NCBI GenBank assembly: GCA_964478705.1
Contig: CAYZIR010000003.1
Location: forward strand, 17,223-81,222
From: an uncultured Candidatus Saccharibacteria bacterium
GTDB taxonomy: Bacteria > Patescibacteriota > Minisyncoccia > Phycocordibacterales > EsbW-18
DNA length: 64,000 nucleotides
Direction of reading: 5' to 3'
Both the position numbers and the translations under genes were made by a program. Positions 1,375 through 63,218 of the stretch are shown one piece after another. A model generated the notes under the pieces. That model searched no databases. It saw nothing but the letters and a program-made list of their open reading frames with translations, and had not been told where the DNA came from. Within the stretch, counting starts at the first letter, position 1; each line of letters starts with the position of its first letter.

Positions 1375-1657
1375 CCTGTTCCTCCTCTTTCAGTCGTCGG
1401 TTGTTACTGTTCCGAGTCAGACAGTACATGACTCTCTAATGGATATCAATATTGAATTACATAGTTGTGGATTACAGATAGGTATGAGTACACATATCCT
1501 TCTGAAACTGATGTACCTGAAACTAAAATAACCTTTCATAGAGCCGTTTTTTGTCGAAAATAAAATCTTTATGAAATCCATTTTCCCCAAGGACTGGACA
1601 GGAAGAGAGCCAAGCGTATAATGCCCACCAATACATTTAACAATTCACACAACCACT

Positions 1658-2332
1658 ATGCGCGCTCTTGTGATCGAAGATGATCAGTACATTGCAGAAG
1701 CGCTTTCGACAGCGCTTAAGAATGAGCGTCTCCTGGTTGAAACGGCTCCCGATGGCGACACGGGGGCCTTTTTTGCAACCACCAATGACTACGACATCAT
1801 TCTTTTGGATACGATGTTGCCAAAAAAGAACGGTGCGGAGGTGTGTCGTCAAATCCGAGAATCCGGCAAGACAACAGCGATTCTCTCAATCTCAGCGAAA
1901 TCCGACCCACATACAAAAACAGAATTACTCGATGCGGGCGTCGACGACTACATAGGAAAGCCGTTTGTTATGGAAGAGGTACTTGCGCGCGTTCGCGCAC
2001 TCCTACGACGCCCACGACAACTCACCGGAAGCACACTCTCTATCGCCGATCTTATCCTTGATACACGAACTCAAAAAACAGAGCGTGGCACACAACAAAT
2101 ACACCTCACACGCAAAGAGTTTATGTTACTCGAATACTTTATGCGTAATATTGGAACGGTTTTGTCACGGGGCATGCTGATGGAGCATGTGTGGGATATG
2201 TCGATCGATCCATTTTCGAACACTATCGAGGCGCATATCATGACGTTGCGTAAAAAAATTCACGTACGAGGGAAACCCACGCTCATACACACAGTATCCG
2301 GAAGGGGCTATAAACTCGCCATCGCCGAATAA
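1658..2332 (+). CDS. OmpR/PhoB-family two-component response regulator
   Basis: Receiver domain (…ILLDTMLP…) plus C-terminal winged-helix domain (…LTRKEFMLLEYFMRN…RGYKL). Confidence 0.9.
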   Translation: MRALVIEDDQYIAEALSTALKNERLLVETAPDGDTGAFFATTNDYDIILLDTMLPKKNGAEVCRQIRESGKTTAILSISAKSDPHTKTELLDAGVDDYIGKPFVMEEVLARVRALLRRPRQLTGSTLSIADLILDTRTQKTERGTQQIHLTRKEFMLLEYFMRNIGTVLSRGMLMEHVWDMSIDPFSNTIEAHIMTLRKKIHVRGKPTLIHTVSGRGYKLAIAE

Positions 2333-2336
2333 CACC

Positions 2337-3302
2337 ATGATGACACCACGACAAACAACAAAAGAAACAAGTGGTGTCATCGCCTCCCCCATATCCCACG
2401 ATGAGGCACTTGCTGACATCGCGCACGGACTCCAAACGCCTATAGCAGCTCTGATAGCGCATCTTGAAATTCTCGCCAAAAAAAGGCCACGAACCCGTGA
2501 AATAAAAATATGTTCCGCCATCGCCCATGATATGGGAGACATGGTTCGTGACTTGGTTCGCCTTGCACGAGCAGATACCACTGTTCGCACGAGCGTTCGT
2601 GAAATCATTGATATAGGCGCATTGGTGCGTTCGTTGGTTGAGTATGTAGAGGTGCTGGCACGAGCGCAAGGTATTGCACTCCACGTTGATATCGCTGAAG
2701 GTATATTAGTCTGTGGTGCACGAAAACAAATTGAAGATGTGATATTGAATCTCATCGGCAACAGTATCAAGTATATGGATCCAGCGTTACGCGGGAAAAA
2801 CATGATCAAAATAATGATTGCTCACGACGATTCGTATTGCCGAATTATCATCAAAGACAACGGAATTGGAATTGATGCAAACGAATTGCCCCATGTCTTC
2901 ACGCGCTTCTATAGAACGCGAGCCGGCAGTAAACAAGCGACAGGATCAGGACTTGGTCTTGCAATAACAAAAAAGACCATCGAAGCTCACGATGGATCAA
3001 TCGAAATTAAAAGTGCGTCCGGTATTGGCACCTGTGTATTTTGTTCCTTTCCGCTTTTTGCGCCTCGCTTACCCCTTTCGAAGTGTGTCGCTCACCACAG
3101 TACCATCCTCGAGCTCAATGATACGGTCTGCAAAGACAGCGTATTCGGGTTCATGGGTCACCATAACAATCGTTTGCCCGTTGCGCTTGTGAAGATCCTG
3201 CATAACGTTGATGACGCTCTCTCCGGATACACTATCAAGATTCGCCGTTGGTTCGTCAGCGAAAAGTATATCTGGCGATTCAGCAATCGCACGGGCGATT
3301 GA
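2337..3302 (+). CDS. Sensor histidine kinase (HisKA + HATPase_c only; no TM or sensor domain)
   Basis: H-box HDEALADIAHGLQTPIAAL, N box and G2 box GSGLGLAI. The ORF continues about 80 aa past the usual HATPase end and overlaps the convergent ABC ATPase gene by 234 nt. Confidence 0.75.
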   Translation: MMTPRQTTKETSGVIASPISHDEALADIAHGLQTPIAALIAHLEILAKKRPRTREIKICSAIAHDMGDMVRDLVRLARADTTVRTSVREIIDIGALVRSLVEYVEVLARAQGIALHVDIAEGILVCGARKQIEDVILNLIGNSIKYMDPALRGKNMIKIMIAHDDSYCRIIIKDNGIGIDANELPHVFTRFYRTRAGSKQATGSGLGLAITKKTIEAHDGSIEIKSASGIGTCVFCSFPLFAPRLPLSKCVAHHSTILELNDTVCKDSVFGFMGHHNNRLPVALVKILHNVDDALSGYTIKIRRWFVSEKYIWRFSNRTGD

Positions 3303-8828: not shown

Positions 8829-10619
8829 TTACTCTTTGCGTTTTGCTTTCGAGCGTTCGTTCTCGGTCAAGAATTGTTTTCGCAAGCGCACTGACTTCGG
8901 TGTAATTTCAAGATATTCATCCTCTGACATGATTTCAAGCCCGCGCTCAATAGAGAGAATGAATGGTGGAACGAGCGTCAACGCTTCGTCGGTTCCCGAT
9001 GCGCGAACGTTTGAGAGTTGTTTACCCTTCGTTGGGTTAACCGGCATTTCCTCACCCTTTGAGGTGTTACCGATTACCATACCTTCATACACTTCGGTTG
9101 CAGGACCAATATAGAGCACACCGCGATCCTGCAATCCCCAGAGAGAGAAACCGAGCGACTTCCCTGTTGCCATTGAAATCATTGATCCAACGACTTTACG
9201 TCGGATTTCGCCAGCGTATGGGCGGAAACCAATCACACGTGATGCAAAAATACCTTCTCCTTTCGTATCAACAATAAATTGGTTTCGATATCCAAGAATA
9301 CCTCGTGTTGGACCCTCAAAGATGAGTCGAACACTCGTCTCATGTTGCTTCATATCTTTCATGATGAATCCACGCTGACCCAGTCGCTCAATAACAACGC
9401 CTTGGTAGATTGCTGGCGTGTCGATTGTCACTTCTTCAAACGGTTCAACCTTCTTCCCTTCTTCTTCCTTAATGATTACTTGTGGTTGTGAGACCTGTAC
9501 TTCGTATCCGGCACGACGCATGTTTTCCAAAAGGATCGAAATATGGAGCTCACCACGGCCGTATACCTTAAAATTTTCATTCGTTGCAAAATCAACGCGA
9601 AGTCCAACGTTCACTTCAAGCTCGCGTTCAAGATAGTCACGAATTTGACGTGATGTCACATACTTTCCTTCTTTACCAGCAAACGGAGAATTGTTGACCA
9701 AAAATTGAAGGACGATGGTTGGTTCGTCAACCGCAATCGCAGGAAGCGCTTCGGCATCTGCGCTCTGGCATACCGTCTCACCGATGTCGATTGCAGGCAA
9801 ACCGGCAATAATTGCAATATCGCCTGCGCCCGCTTCAGCAACCTCTGTTCGCTCAAGCCCAGTAAAAGTGAAAACGTTCGTGATTTTTCCAGGTCGTGTC
9901 TCCCCTTTCATATTTTTTACGAACACGTTCATACCTGCTTTCACGGTACCTTCATAAATACGTGCAACGGCAAGTCGACCGAGGAAGTTATCGTAGGCGA
10001 GGTTAAATGGCTGTAAACGAAGTGGTTTTGCAGACAGCTCGGCTGATGATGCAACAGGGACTTTCTCAAGAATCAAATCAAGGAGTGGCATCAGGTCTTT
10101 TTGTTCGTCGTCGAGCTTTCGCATCGCAACACCGTTGCGTCCAATTGCATACATCACTGGAAAATCTGCTTGCGCATCAGATGCGCCCAGCTCAAGGAAG
10201 AGTTCGAGCACTTGTTCCTCACAACGTGCAGGATCCGCGGCGGGCTTATCGATCTTGTTGATGATGACAATTGGTTTCAATCCGAGTTCGAGTGATTTCT
10301 TCAATACAAAACGAGTCTGTGGCATCGGACCTTCCTGTGCATCAACGACCAAAAGGACCGAGTCGATTGAACGAAGAACGCGCTCTACTTCAGAACCGAA
10401 GTCGGCGTGACCGGGGGTGTCAACGATGTTAATCTTCGTTCCCTTGTAGGAAACGGATGTGTTCTTGGCGTAAATGGTAATACCACGCTCTTGTTCAAGG
10501 GCGTTTGAGTCCATCGAGACACCTTCTTTGGTCGCCCCTGTCTGGCGCATCAAAGCATCGGTAAGAGTCGTCTTGCCGTGGTCAACGTGTGCAATGATTG
10601 CAATGTTTCGTATTTCCAT
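8829..10619 (-). CDS. typA: Translational GTPase TypA/BipA
   Basis: AIIAHVDHGKTTL G1, DTPGHADF G3, NKIDK G4 and BipA C-terminal domain; 596 aa. Confidence 0.95.
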   Translation of the reverse strand: MEIRNIAIIAHVDHGKTTLTDALMRQTGATKEGVSMDSNALEQERGITIYAKNTSVSYKGTKINIVDTPGHADFGSEVERVLRSIDSVLLVVDAQEGPMPQTRFVLKKSLELGLKPIVIINKIDKPAADPARCEEQVLELFLELGASDAQADFPVMYAIGRNGVAMRKLDDEQKDLMPLLDLILEKVPVASSAELSAKPLRLQPFNLAYDNFLGRLAVARIYEGTVKAGMNVFVKNMKGETRPGKITNVFTFTGLERTEVAEAGAGDIAIIAGLPAIDIGETVCQSADAEALPAIAVDEPTIVLQFLVNNSPFAGKEGKYVTSRQIRDYLERELEVNVGLRVDFATNENFKVYGRGELHISILLENMRRAGYEVQVSQPQVIIKEEEGKKVEPFEEVTIDTPAIYQGVVIERLGQRGFIMKDMKQHETSVRLIFEGPTRGILGYRNQFIVDTKGEGIFASRVIGFRPYAGEIRRKVVGSMISMATGKSLGFSLWGLQDRGVLYIGPATEVYEGMVIGNTSKGEEMPVNPTKGKQLSNVRASGTDEALTLVPPFILSIERGLEIMSEDEYLEITPKSVRLRKQFLTENERSKAKRKE

Positions 10620-10620
10620 A

Positions 10621-10747
10621 CTTGTGAATTAATTGCACACGTTGTGCGAAAGGGGTCGGGAAAACTCTAGTTTTCCCGTATCGGAGAGCAGGGCGAAGCC
10701 CGCTGAGAACCGAGGGTTCTTAGGAAGTGGCGTAGCCACGACTGAGG
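10621..10747 (+). mobile_element. 127-nt multi-hairpin insertion (repeat family copy A) flanked by 32-bp direct duplication of the typA start
   Basis: 10589..10620 is identical to 10748..10779 (gtgcaatgattgcaatgtttcgtatttccata). The insert has palindromes gcacacgttgtgc, gggaaaac/gttttccc, gggcGAAgccc, ctgagaacc/ggttcttag, gtggc/gccac. Core 10688..10728 is identical to the reverse complement of 21853..21893. Confidence 0.6.
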
Positions 10748-10842
10748 GTGCAATGATTGCAATGTTTCGTATTTCCATATAAACAAAAAGAGCCGCGAGG
10801 GCTTTGACCCATCATACGATAAAAAGCTCTAAAAGACAACTC

Positions 10843-11436
10843 TTATGGCTTTAACCAGTGTCGCAACACCACGTGTCGGATACAAAGATGTATGAGTACA
10901 ACGACAACGACAAAAATGAGAAAGGACACCTCAAGCACGTGCACCATACCTGTGAATGTCTGCAATGTCATGTTGGTTGCATACGCAAGGAGAAGAATAC
11001 AGAGTGCAAGAGAAGCGGTCCCCAGTATATTCACAAACAGATAGCGCCAAAAAGGAGTCTTATACATACCGGACATCACTTGCACAACGGTACGCGTTCC
11101 GTAGACAAATTTTGATATGTAGAGCGTTTTCAATCTATGAACGATGAAAAAAGATGCGATACCTTCCATAACGCGCGACGCTCGTGACCCGATAATCCGT
11201 ATGACCGTGGTGCGAGCGAGGGATCGTCCCAATGCATACCATACGAGATCAGAGAGAAGCGCCGCGCTTATCATCAACCCGATGATAACCGATGTATCGA
11301 ATGTGCCTCGAAACGCCAAATACAGCGAAGGGAAAAATACCGTTTCCCCAAAAAAGAACAGACCAATGAAGATAAATATATACGGATGCAGGGAGAACGG
11401 TTCAAGAAAACTCTGTAGTATCGTCAAGAAATCCAT
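10843..11436 (-). CDS. DedA/SNARE-associated family membrane protein
   Basis: …FFGETVFFPSL… DedA motif and multiple TM helices. Confidence 0.75.
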   Translation of the reverse strand: MDFLTILQSFLEPFSLHPYIFIFIGLFFFGETVFFPSLYLAFRGTFDTSVIIGLMISAALLSDLVWYALGRSLARTTVIRIIGSRASRVMEGIASFFIVHRLKTLYISKFVYGTRTVVQVMSGMYKTPFWRYLFVNILGTASLALCILLLAYATNMTLQTFTGMVHVLEVSFLIFVVVVVLIHLCIRHVVLRHWLKP

Positions 11437-21043: not shown

Positions 21044-21814
21044 TTATTCAAACTCAACCAACAATGCCAGGTGATCCGAAACTTCATCTGGCAATGCTTC
21101 GAATTCTCTCACGTTAATATCTCCTGAAACTAAGACATAATCGGCAAATTTCTCCTCCTTCGGGTAATGATGATTACGTGTCGACGGTATGTTGTATTTT
21201 TTAATGAGGTTAATCATATTTTCTTCAAGCATATTCATGGCGTTACCATCATTCACGATATTGAAATCGCCACACAATATCTTTTTCCCTGTATGAGATG
21301 CTAGGAACTGGTTGATGACCTTCGATTGCTCGAGTCGCTCTGGAATATCTTTCTTCTGAGACTTATTTTTCCATAAACCATGGAGGTTGAGTACAGTTAT
21401 GCTTTCCTCACTGCTCAGTGCGAGCTTTACCCACTGGCACTTGCCACTCAGCATATCTCCTCCGCGCGTATACGACTGTTCAGGATGACTTTTGAAATGG
21501 CCGCTTTCCAGAATCGTGATATTTTTTCTTACAAAGATAACCTGCCCGCACCCAACCTCAGGATCAAGAAATTCACCATGGATGAATGATTCGGCGGGGT
21601 CTTTGTGTACAAATGAATCGAAATCGCTCAATACAGCGCGTAGTTCATCGTAGAGATTTAATCTTCCCTTCTGGACGGGACTAAACTCTGGCTGTGAACC
21701 AAAAAGCGCGTCCTGAAAACAAAAGATGTCGACGTCCTTCGAGTATTTCTGTATGAACGTCATGAGCGACTCATAGAGTTTACCGCCCCACAAGTTTAGA
21801 GTAATCAGTTTCAT
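21044..21814 (-). CDS. Endonuclease/exonuclease/phosphatase (EEP) family protein
   Basis: MKLITLNLWGG… start, catalytic SDHLAL near C-terminus, GDFN motif. ORF-track start at 21898 reads through the repeat element; the Met at 21814 is preferred. Confidence 0.75.
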   Translation of the reverse strand: MKLITLNLWGGKLYESLMTFIQKYSKDVDIFCFQDALFGSQPEFSPVQKGRLNLYDELRAVLSDFDSFVHKDPAESFIHGEFLDPEVGCGQVIFVRKNITILESGHFKSHPEQSYTRGGDMLSGKCQWVKLALSSEESITVLNLHGLWKNKSQKKDIPERLEQSKVINQFLASHTGKKILCGDFNIVNDGNAMNMLEENMINLIKKYNIPSTRNHHYPKEEKFADYVLVSGDINVREFEALPDEVSDHLALLVEFE

Positions 21815-21835
21815 GTTTGTTGCCGGACTAGGAAT

Positions 21836-22001
21836 CTCACTCGCTTCGCTCTCTAAGAACCCTCGGTTCTCAGCGGGCTTCGCCCTGCTCTCCAACACGG
21901 GAGAACACGTGTTCTCCCGACCCCACTCCTGTTCGAATCCAAGTCCGCGCTCAAACAGAAGTCACATTTCTGATACCGGACGGTATCAGAAATATCACTT
22001 G
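21836..22001 (-). mobile_element. Repeat family copy B: ~166-nt structured insert between a degenerate duplicate of the tRNA-Gln 3' end and the tRNA-Gln gene
   Basis: Core 21853..21893 is the reverse complement of 10688..10728 (41/41). Palindromes gggagaacac/gtgttctccc (21898..21917) and ttctgatacc/ggtatcagaa (21969..21992). Inverted tRNA 3' fragment gttcgaatccaagtccg at 21931..21947. Flank 21817..21836 ttgttgccggactaggaatc versus tRNA end 21999..22018 ttgttgccggacttggattc. Confidence 0.55.
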
Positions 22002-22072
22002 TTGCCGGACTTGGATTCGAACCAAGATACCCTCCTCCAAAGGGAGGTGTCCTACCATTAGACGATCCGGCA
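22002..22072 (-). tRNA. tRNA-Gln (anticodon TTG)
   Basis: Reverse complement TGCCGGATCGTCTAATGGTAGGACACCTCCCTTTGGAGGAGGGTATCTTGGTTCGAATCCAAGTCCGGCAA. 7-bp acceptor stem, anticodon loop CTTTGGA, T-loop TTCGAAT. Confidence 0.9.
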
Positions 22073-22201
22073 TTGTTCAATTGTCCTACCATTAGACCTG
22101 TCTAGCTGGCGCTAGCCAAGGCTGATCCGCCTCGGCTCGCTTCGCTTACCGAAGCGAGACGGGCGATCCGGCAGAATACAGGGACACTATACCCTGCGAC
22201 C

Positions 22202-62825: not shown

Positions 62826-63119
62826 CTATACCATACGCTTCAGTTTTTTGGAAGTTTTTATTCGATACGGAGTTATCGACTTCGATACAGTGAGTGCCAG
62901 CTTCGCGCTTCGGGATAAACGTTTTATTTCCGCCTCCCGCTTTGATGCAGTACTTCGATTTTTCTTTCGTTCGGTATAGGCAATGTTCACTGCTCCCTTT
63001 GCTCGCGTATAACGCCCTCCCAATCCCTTTTTGTGCTCCGCGAGTCGTCGTTTCATATCAGTCGTGATGCCGGTGTACAGAGAACCATCACCACAGCGTA
63101 GAATATAAACGGTATACAT
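62826..63119 (-). CDS. GIY-YIG nuclease-domain protein (UPF0213-like)
   Basis: …YTVYILRCGDGSLYTGITTDMKRRLAEHK… GIY-YIG core. Confidence 0.75.
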   Translation of the reverse strand: MYTVYILRCGDGSLYTGITTDMKRRLAEHKKGLGGRYTRAKGAVNIAYTERKKNRSTASKREAEIKRLSRSAKLALTVSKSITPYRIKTSKKLKRMV

Positions 63120-63218
63120 GACTCTCAATTGTTGTTATATGTGGGAGAGTATATTGTATCTCCCCTGAGGTTTCAGGAACGCACAATCTAAGCTACAAAT
63201 TCTGGGGTTTCTGGAACA

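Follow-up and report, generated by a model that had tools for sequence, protein, structure and literature searches.

Bacteria of the Candidate Phyla Radiation (CPR, Patescibacteria) have minimal genomes with few recognized mobile elements. [quoted passage not shown] We take the definition of MITEs and the behavior of small repeats from PMC10969869. MITEs and the Correia/NEMIS, ERIC, RUP and BOX repeats are short (<500 bp), non-coding, non-autonomous and hairpin-forming; they show a target duplication when young and are found in transcripts and inside genes (PMC10969869). Rickettsia palindromic elements (RPEs) are palindromic, measure about 100–150 bp, occur in a reduced-genome lineage, and insert in frame and get translated within protein genes (PMC10969869). 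These traits recur in the element described here and its relatives, with in-frame insertion at a single locus. The element is a 127-nt insert at the start of the gene typA, in a stretch of 64,000 nucleotides (the window) from an uncultured Candidatus Saccharibacteria bacterium (contig CAYZIR010000003.1). We consider it probable that the insert is one copy of a family of small (about 100–130 nt), non-coding, non-autonomous mobile elements specific to the CPR, and the family is apparently undescribed to date.

Insertion at the start of typA

The gene typA (translational GTPase TypA/BipA) occupies positions 8829–10619 on the minus strand. It is intact and encodes 596 amino acids; homologues up to 100 % identical carry the TypA Pfam domains. 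The preliminary description reported two identical 32-mers at 10589–10620 and 10748–10779, in which the ATG and first 10 codons of typA lie; we find the same exact direct repeat (32/32). The gene-proximal copy contains codons 1–10 plus 1 nt upstream in the minus-strand reading and is contiguous with the typA body. The distal copy is contiguous with the native typA upstream region and aligns with upstream intergenic DNA of relatives. Between the two lies the element (10621–10747, plus strand), antisense to typA.

Empty sites in two relatives prove that this is an insertion, as had been proposed for a small insert with an unusually long target duplication. One relative (L012–L014; L numbers designate loci outside the window) has a TypA 99 % identical in amino acids and the other (L015–L017) a TypA 96 % identical; their typA DNA is 84–87 % identical to that of the window. 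Both have a single uninterrupted typA start, and their conserved upstream region runs directly into ATGGAAAT..., and the gene-proximal 32-mer of the window continues into typA just as the empty sites do. The element is absent from L012, L015 and L016. When these three are aligned to the window, the upstream block and the typA body overlap by ~30 nt. The gain of the window over the relatives is 159 bp, that is, the 127-nt element plus the 32-bp target duplication. Because species-level relatives carry one uninterrupted typA start, the window holds a true 159-bp insertion: the element arrived at the typA start, with duplication of 32 bp, after the lineage had parted from the sampled relatives. 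Neither a duplicated start nor the core peptide was seen in TypA homologues that have long N-termini. The direct repeat flanks the element as a target duplication flanks a MITE, but it is much longer than usual.

On the plus strand, the element consists of a filler (10621–10631), an inverted arm (10632–10644), a linker, a core, a distal hairpin and a tail. The arm is an inverted copy of the target and ends 7 nt ahead of the core GGGG. It forms the 3′ strand of a stem, called P1 here, whose host strand (10583–10595, plus strand) is a 13-nt exact inverted repeat of it. This host strand straddles the left edge of the duplication, with 6 nt outside and 7 nt inside. An imperfect extension of P1 (10583–10602 with 10625–10644) pairs at 17/20 positions. 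The conserved three-hairpin core spans 10646–10727 (plus strand; covariance model 100 bits, E=4e-20) and shows compensatory pairs. Its hairpins 0 (10657–10678), A (10691–10701) and B (10703–10723) are perfect or near-perfect, and an invariant 41-mer covers 10683–10723. The region 10727–10747 comprises a variable distal hairpin seen in folds, GTGGC-GTA-GCCAC (10727–10739), and the tail GACTGAGG; other copies have a hairpin of differing sequence at the equivalent place. The preliminary description of a strongly structured 127-nt segment is therefore accurate: beside the three core hairpins and the distal one, the element folds better than shuffled sequences on both strands (z=−3.2 on plus, −3.5 on minus). 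The open reading frames (ORFs) in its 127 nt are spurious read-throughs only, so that the element is non-coding and, like MITEs, below ~500 bp. A search for terminal inverted repeats gave a best match of 6/14, which 496 of 500 shuffles equal. No source copy of the spacer or filler sequences was found elsewhere in the window.

The insertion alters the layout of the typA start. The distal 32-mer contains a decoy ATG (10776–10778, minus strand), and the ORF that had been noted to begin there does so; it has 49 codons (10629–10778, minus strand), not 43. It starts with TypA codons 1–10, reads through the element antisense and stops 9 nt ahead of the real typA ATG. The only sigma-70-like promoter match, TTGTCT-17-TATGAT (10839–10811, minus strand; a consensus match), lies upstream of the distal copy and the decoy start, in a region that is conserved in the typA upstream DNA of the relatives. 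The insertion would have pushed the typA promoter 159 nt upstream while leaving the gene intact. With the promoter match upstream of the distal copy, the mRNA should present the decoy AUG first, in its native context. In the mRNA-sense fold, the true typA AUG is in the loop of the P1-equivalent hairpin. Because TypA is intact despite the upstream ORF, its synthesis probably depends on reinitiation or internal initiation.

The neighborhood of typA also differs between the genomes. In the relatives, a 224-aa glycosyltransferase gene lies between a DedA/VTT-domain gene and typA (L012, 1699–3000). It is absent from the window, which (10780–10842; 10843–11436) retains the last ~13 nt of that gene and a 49-nt intergenic region, 63 nt from the element. 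The DedA-like gene is much more diverged between the window and the relatives (about 70 % nucleotide identity) than typA (84–87 %). L016 and L005 share a metagenome-assembled genome (MAG), GCA_964634615 (CAZWLQ01), which is labelled 'uncultured Candidatus Saccharibacteria' and has a TypA 96 % identical to that of the window, and the 99 % TypA relative carries the label Pacebacteria. The taxonomic label of one of these two is probably wrong.

A recurring core and an arm complementary to the target

A second copy lies 11 kb away in the window (21818–21999, minus strand), downstream of a tRNA-Gln(ttg) gene (22001–22072, minus strand; ARAGORN and Rfam). The recurrence of a 41-nt core had been noted, and it is exact and on the reverse strand at 21853–21893; its first occurrence is at 10683–10723, five bases from the 10688–10728 given before. 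Zero such matches are expected (100 shuffles). The two copies are alike over 72 nt at 90 % identity (10652–10723 versus 21924–21853). The second copy comprises a spacer (21948–21999) with a 13-bp palindrome (21966–21993), an inverted arm (21931–21947), the core and distal hairpin (21837–21930, core 21849–21930; covariance model) and a direct copy of the tRNA 3′ end (21818–21836, 17/19 identical), all on the minus strand. The T-loop and acceptor 3′ strand of the tRNA (22006–22022) pair perfectly with the arm, forming a 17-nt exact inverted repeat. When we looked for an empty tRNA-Gln site in the relatives, there was no synteny; a diverged member of the family (L021) turned up instead. The stem made of an inverted target copy, the tRNA-Gln gene end as the target of the second copy and the antisense orientation of the element to typA were not part of the preliminary description.

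We built a covariance model (R1) from nine copies. It recovers all family copies at 52–106 bits and finds exactly two in the window, at 100 and 98 bits, with the next-best match at 14 bits. Both have what defines the family, an R1-matching three-hairpin core and a target-complementary arm that ends 5–10 nt upstream of it. An exact search with a core 21-mer covered about 185,000 species-representative genomes plus metagenomes. Only five of the genomes carry it, all of them CPR (labels Paceibacterota, Nomurabacteria and Saccharibacteria). Four further loci came from metagenomes: L006 and L011, which are the same sequence in two samples, L009, and L010, identical to L001. Two other metagenome matches (L007, L008) are ordinary coding DNA, coincidental and not copies. 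Among 5.8 billion proteins, a composite query built from peptides that the core encodes matched only two (P0122 and P0121). P0122 was informative and added a variant copy inside a trpG/pabA gene (L018–L020, three samples); the locus of P0121 was not found. Via a neighbor gene of a relative, we came upon L021, a copy with about 60 % identity that lies downstream of tRNA-Gln(ctg). The expectation of further copies, flanked by duplicated host sequence, is thus borne out by the second copy in the window and by others in CPR genomes and metagenomes, and the flanking holds for most of them. Rfam 15, at the gathering threshold and at E≤10, gave only tRNAs and chance miRNA-type hairpins and no family match. 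A full-text literature search that included the core sequence found no description of the family.

We read the anatomy on the GGGGTCGGG strand, which is the strand that folds. The order in a copy is the native gene end, a spacer, the inverted arm, the core, the variable distal hairpin and, at eight loci, a direct copy of the gene end. The spacer measures 3 to about 75 nt and often has a terminator-like palindrome. The arm repeats 8–20 nt of the gene end in inverted form and always ends 5–10 nt (usually 6–7) ahead of the core, so that it has the same fixed position in 10/10 loci tabulated. It reaches past the left boundary of the duplication, by 6 nt in the typA copy, 4 nt in the tRNA copies and 1–3 nt in the rplL copies. 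The core consists of hairpins 0, A and B and the invariant 41-mer. Eight copies sit at a gene end that can be identified, and there the direct copy repeats 19–33 nt of it.

The targets are diverse. Apart from the typA start and the 3′ end of tRNA-Gln(ttg), they are the 3′ ends of tRNA-Gln(ctg) (L021) and of a tRNA that harbors a group I intron (L005), the rplL 3′ end together with its stop codon (L001=L010, L004, L009 and L006=L011), the 3′ end of a CCA-adding enzyme gene (L002) and an in-frame site in TrpG (L018–L020), where about 43 residues are added in a loop. The host gene stays usable in every one of the independent insertions, of which there are at least seven, and the trpG copy is in frame and stop-free. 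The intron in the L005 tRNA (2992–3260; RF00028, 69 bits) explains why ARAGORN missed that tRNA, and it fits the reported abundance of tRNA introns in Patescibacteria (PMC13011429). Two direct copies of the tRNA 3′ end (TCCGTATGTCCGGCAAC), lying 35 nt apart, come after the diverged element at tRNA-Gln(ctg) (L021, about 1865–2070); this suggests repeated events at one site.

The core strand folds as a single strand, whether of RNA or of top-strand DNA. Changes on both sides affect four pairs of hairpin 0 and two of hairpin B. Hairpin B and closing pairs contain G⋅U pairs, which would be A⋅C mismatches on the opposite strand and therefore identify the strand that folds. Over 11 loci, P1 contains 146 Watson–Crick, 3 G⋅U and 0 A⋅C pairs. 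Large insertions are confined to hairpin loops (L003, L006). For most copies, the core strand runs in the sense direction of the host gene next to it; the typA copy is exceptional in being antisense to both neighboring genes.

Some features around the copies are of separate interest. Just upstream of the real tRNA-Gln(ttg) is a pseudo-copy of its first 26 nt (22073–22180, minus strand), TGCCGGATCG...GTCTAATGGTAGGACA, interrupted after position 10 by a ~66-nt insert with a hairpin (CTCGCTTCG/CGAAGCGAG). The string AGCGAAGCGAG recurs in the distal hairpin of the second copy (near 21850), and the near-identical AGCGAAGCGGAG is in the L021 spacer. This feature scores only 8 bits with the covariance model and may be a decayed or different small element. 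An endonuclease/exonuclease/phosphatase-family (EEP) gene (21044–21814, minus strand) starts 3 nt past the second copy, and an exonuclease III-like gene (L002, 3227–4054, minus strand) lies about 600 nt from the L002 copy. A functional link to the EEP gene was considered and set aside. The adjacency probably reflects synteny with tRNA-Gln, because relatives keep the gene near tRNA-Gln even under a differing layout.

Four reading frames stay open across the invariant core (window 21044–21898(−) and 10633–10782(+); L002 2535–2855(−); L004 953–1585(−) and 1381–2085(+)), and ORF finders therefore extend or invent ORFs through it. One example is a 284-aa, GTG-start version of the EEP gene that begins MLESRAKPAENRGF. 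For annotation, the family means decoy starts, spurious ORFs, about 43 extra TrpG residues and tRNA-gene pseudo-ends.

Possible modes of movement

We infer, from the layout of the copies, how the element moves. It would insert as, or be copied from, a single-stranded intermediate, with a trans-acting enzyme carrying out the insertion. A break at a gene boundary would leave a 19–33-nt stagger or 3′ flap. The displaced flap would snap back, and its extension as far as its base and a few nucleotides further, into the duplex, would give the arm; synthesis or joining would then continue through the core, and filling of the gap opposite the flap would give the direct copy. Snap-back synthesis running into the duplex would account for the 1–6 nt by which the arm overshoots the left edge of the duplication. 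Since the duplication restores the gene end, insertions would be harmless and survive. Over 88 nt, window copy 2 and L005 reach 98.9 % identity; the tRNAs at which they sit, their arms and their direct copies nevertheless differ. This speaks for arms and repeats made at each insertion with the target as template, although concerted evolution of the cores could produce the same contrast.

Several points weigh against this account of a mobile family. The element holds no gene, and a scan of ten window ORFs (nine without obvious function and the DedA-like one) found no transposase, integrase or reverse transcriptase; none was found beside the other copies either. A stand-alone 100-aa protein with a GIY-YIG nuclease domain (62826–63128, minus strand; Pfam E=4e-16) is encoded in the window, and no link between it and the element was found. 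Three scans of viral collections gave no true copy, and annotated phages and plasmids gave no match; the one viral match (L028) is GC-rich coding DNA at 9.5 bits. The snap-back step is conjecture. The typA arm is exact over only 13 nt, and its next 7 nt contain 3 mismatches beside a perfect 32-nt duplication, a pattern that fits an imported arm better than copying on the spot. L002 and L003 have no recognizable direct copy, and the trpG copy (L018) has no clear one. If RNA is the active form, the typA copy may be inert. Finally, simple neutral decay of a target duplication does not predict the coding-like distal copies at rplL.

At the four rplL loci, we compared the last eight codons and the stop between the proximal and distal copies. 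The 22 differing positions comprise 21 third codon positions and a single first position with a synonymous change, so that the peptide and the stop are unchanged; the chance probability of the pattern is 5e-5 to 2.5e-3 per locus. Between genomes, the distal copies also differ almost only synonymously, and L006 has an Ala-to-Gly change that its two copies share. Covariation links the arm to the proximal copy (GCT/GCA/GCG versus AGC/TGC/CGC). We compared identities between genomes for L001, L004 and L009. Third codon positions of rplL are 43–65 % identical, the spacer and inverted arm 88–94 %, and the core and distal hairpin 98–100 %. The DNA beyond the distal copy mostly does not align (46–55 % for the L009 pairs; L001–L004 partly). 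Three of the loci have a terminator in the interval from the proximal stop to the element. Stop-to-stop distances of 203, 203, 202 and 192 nt exclude both read-through and frameshifting into the distal copy; an in-frame TGA lies ahead of that copy. These data suggest two remaining readings, a horizontally spreading block with a replacement gene end and terminator, or removal at the DNA or RNA level that is frequent enough to keep both ends under selection. Put differently, the synonymous-only divergence suggests a carried replacement gene end or reversible removal.

In the first of these, the element would be a miniature integrative module that brings along a replacement gene end of its own, as the prophages e14 and 21 do in icd or as islands do in tRNA genes. 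The mobile unit would be the gene-end copy with the spacer/terminator, the inverted arm and the core, and the flanking repeats would be att-like. Integration would be site-specific, possibly arm-guided, at the left edge of the resident end, which would be displaced downstream. Copies that differ only synonymously are the classic signature of a carried gene end. A spacer-to-core block that is 88–100 % identical between genomes, while the third positions of rplL and the DNA past the distal copy are not, fits as well, as does the covariation of the arm with the proximal copy. The spacer supplies a terminator-like hairpin directly after the proximal stop codon, the arm pairs 1–6 nt past the repeat as a junction-spanning guide would, and tRNA 3′ ends are typical integrase targets. 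However, there is no integrase in or near any copy, and the unit measures merely 130–230 nt. The typA 32-mers are identical, although species-level relatives differ at about 4/32 positions, so that a carried copy would need to originate from the same population. The typA arm also mismatches the proximal copy with which it would have travelled, and the first capture of each new end would still require a duplication-type event. We regard this explanation as possible, though clearly less likely than a family that duplicates its target.

An unlikely extension is that the element is a reversible 'gene-end cassette', with an arm that is written at insertion or that guides it, two selectable synonymous gene ends, and routine removal and re-insertion, in DNA or RNA, through machinery new to CPR bacteria. 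It would then represent a new, possibly nucleic-acid-guided insertion/excision mechanism whose guide is re-templated by the target. That a genuinely new mechanism of insertion and excision stands behind the family at all is, in our judgment, similarly a long shot.

Two further explanations are quite improbable. In one, the element is intron-like or reversibly excised, and P1 juxtaposes the starts of both repeats. The segment between them would be excised, either from RNA, through the action of a ribozyme or of a nuclease and a ligase, or from DNA, and the distal copy would regularly be the real gene end. Consistent with this are the constraint that the distal rplL copy shows at the codon level, the P1–core geometry, sense-strand folding with co-orientation to the host gene in most copies and the unusual richness of Patescibacteria in introns (PMC13011429). 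Yet host genes work without removal: the gene ends exist in duplicate, the trpG insertion keeps the frame and has no stop, and the typA copy is antisense. By eye, we sought features of hammerhead and hepatitis delta virus (HDV)-like ribozymes, group II domain V, transfer-messenger RNA and attC sites, and none fits. Rfam models of self-cleaving ribozymes (hammerhead, HDV-like, twister, pistol, hatchet and others) gave only chance miRNA-type hairpins, and the group I intron core (RF00028) gave no match at E≤10 on either window copy, although the same tool detects the genuine intron in L005. Since insertions leave host genes usable and no intron or ribozyme model matches, obligatory splicing is unlikely. 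The core is also far smaller than any self-splicing intron, and the terminators at three rplL loci stand between the proximal stop and the element.

In the other, the element is mainly a host-serving cis-acting RNA (a 3′-end stabilizer, processing signal or insulator), which is kept by selection and whose mobility is incidental. The 41-mer is extremely conserved across lineages labelled Paceibacterota, Nomurabacteria and Saccharibacteria, it sits just downstream of highly expressed genes (tRNAs, rplL) in sense orientation, and the P1 pairing is kept by covariation. Against such a role, very few genomes carry the element, and orthologous sites in close relatives are empty. The typA copy is recent and antisense, one copy lies within a coding sequence, and the target genes are unrelated.

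An assembly artefact, or a local rearrangement that happened once, is scarcely credible as the source of the duplication, although the window comes from a single assembly, because ~10 independent assemblies show the same architecture: the layout of arm and core, with the direct repeat at gene ends, recurs at other loci, the junctions are in register with the gene, and the core recurs within the window itself.

Where almost every base codes, selfish DNA can persist, as this mobile family shows, by restoring the gene ends at which it lands. We know of no transposition chemistry that fits a target-derived stem together with 19–33-bp duplications, and this combination may mark an unrecognized insertion pathway.

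Comparison with known elements

Gene-end-regenerating integrative elements, such as tRNA islands and the e14 and phage 21 elements in icd, resemble the CPR family in their targets, which are tRNA 3′ ends and the ends of protein genes, and in their flanking direct repeats. We found such repeats of the gene end at tRNA-Gln, the intron-containing tRNA, rplL and typA. The rplL copies that differ only synonymously are a further likeness to e14 and phage 21. The CPR unit differs in having an extra inverted copy of the target and, at typA, identical repeats. A site-specific recombinase does not belong to it: the 127–230-nt unit has no gene, and there is none adjacent.

Palindrome-associated elements of the IS200/IS605 type, which move as single-stranded DNA by 'peel and paste', likewise have no terminal inverted repeats and have hairpins near both ends. 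Strand-specific folding and a short internal sequence that pairs with flanking DNA are also common to both. IS200/IS605 elements, however, make no target duplication and insert beside a fixed 4–5-nt motif, whereas the CPR family leaves 19–33-nt duplications at targets that are unrelated in sequence and have no common motif.

Mobile RNAs that bear guides offer a third comparison. In the exon- and intron-binding sites (EBS/IBS) of group II introns and in the IS110 bridge RNA, an internal target-complementary segment spans the insertion junction, as the arm does here. The R2 5′ ribozyme uses host 28S sequence in its P1, and the CPR family likewise builds a structure from host sequence. The CPR arm is 8–20 nt in one piece, and no reverse transcriptase or recombinase was found with it, unlike in the guide-bearing systems, which moreover do not make 19–33-bp duplications. 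Group II introns are reported to be absent from Patescibacteria (PMC13011429).

The likeness is closest to the small repeats introduced at the outset. In contrast to MITEs, which are AT-rich, the CPR family is GC-rich, has no terminal inverted repeats and no known parent insertion sequence, duplicates 19–33 bp and carries a target-derived inverted arm. The RPEs, compared here by their in-frame behavior and not by sequence alignment, belong to a different lineage; in-frame insertion is routine for them, whereas it occurs at one locus in the CPR family and most copies are at gene ends. To our knowledge, RPEs neither duplicate 20–30 bp of their target nor copy it inverted. The CPR family resembles MITEs and RPEs in size and lifestyle, and its long duplications and target-derived stem differ from every class compared.

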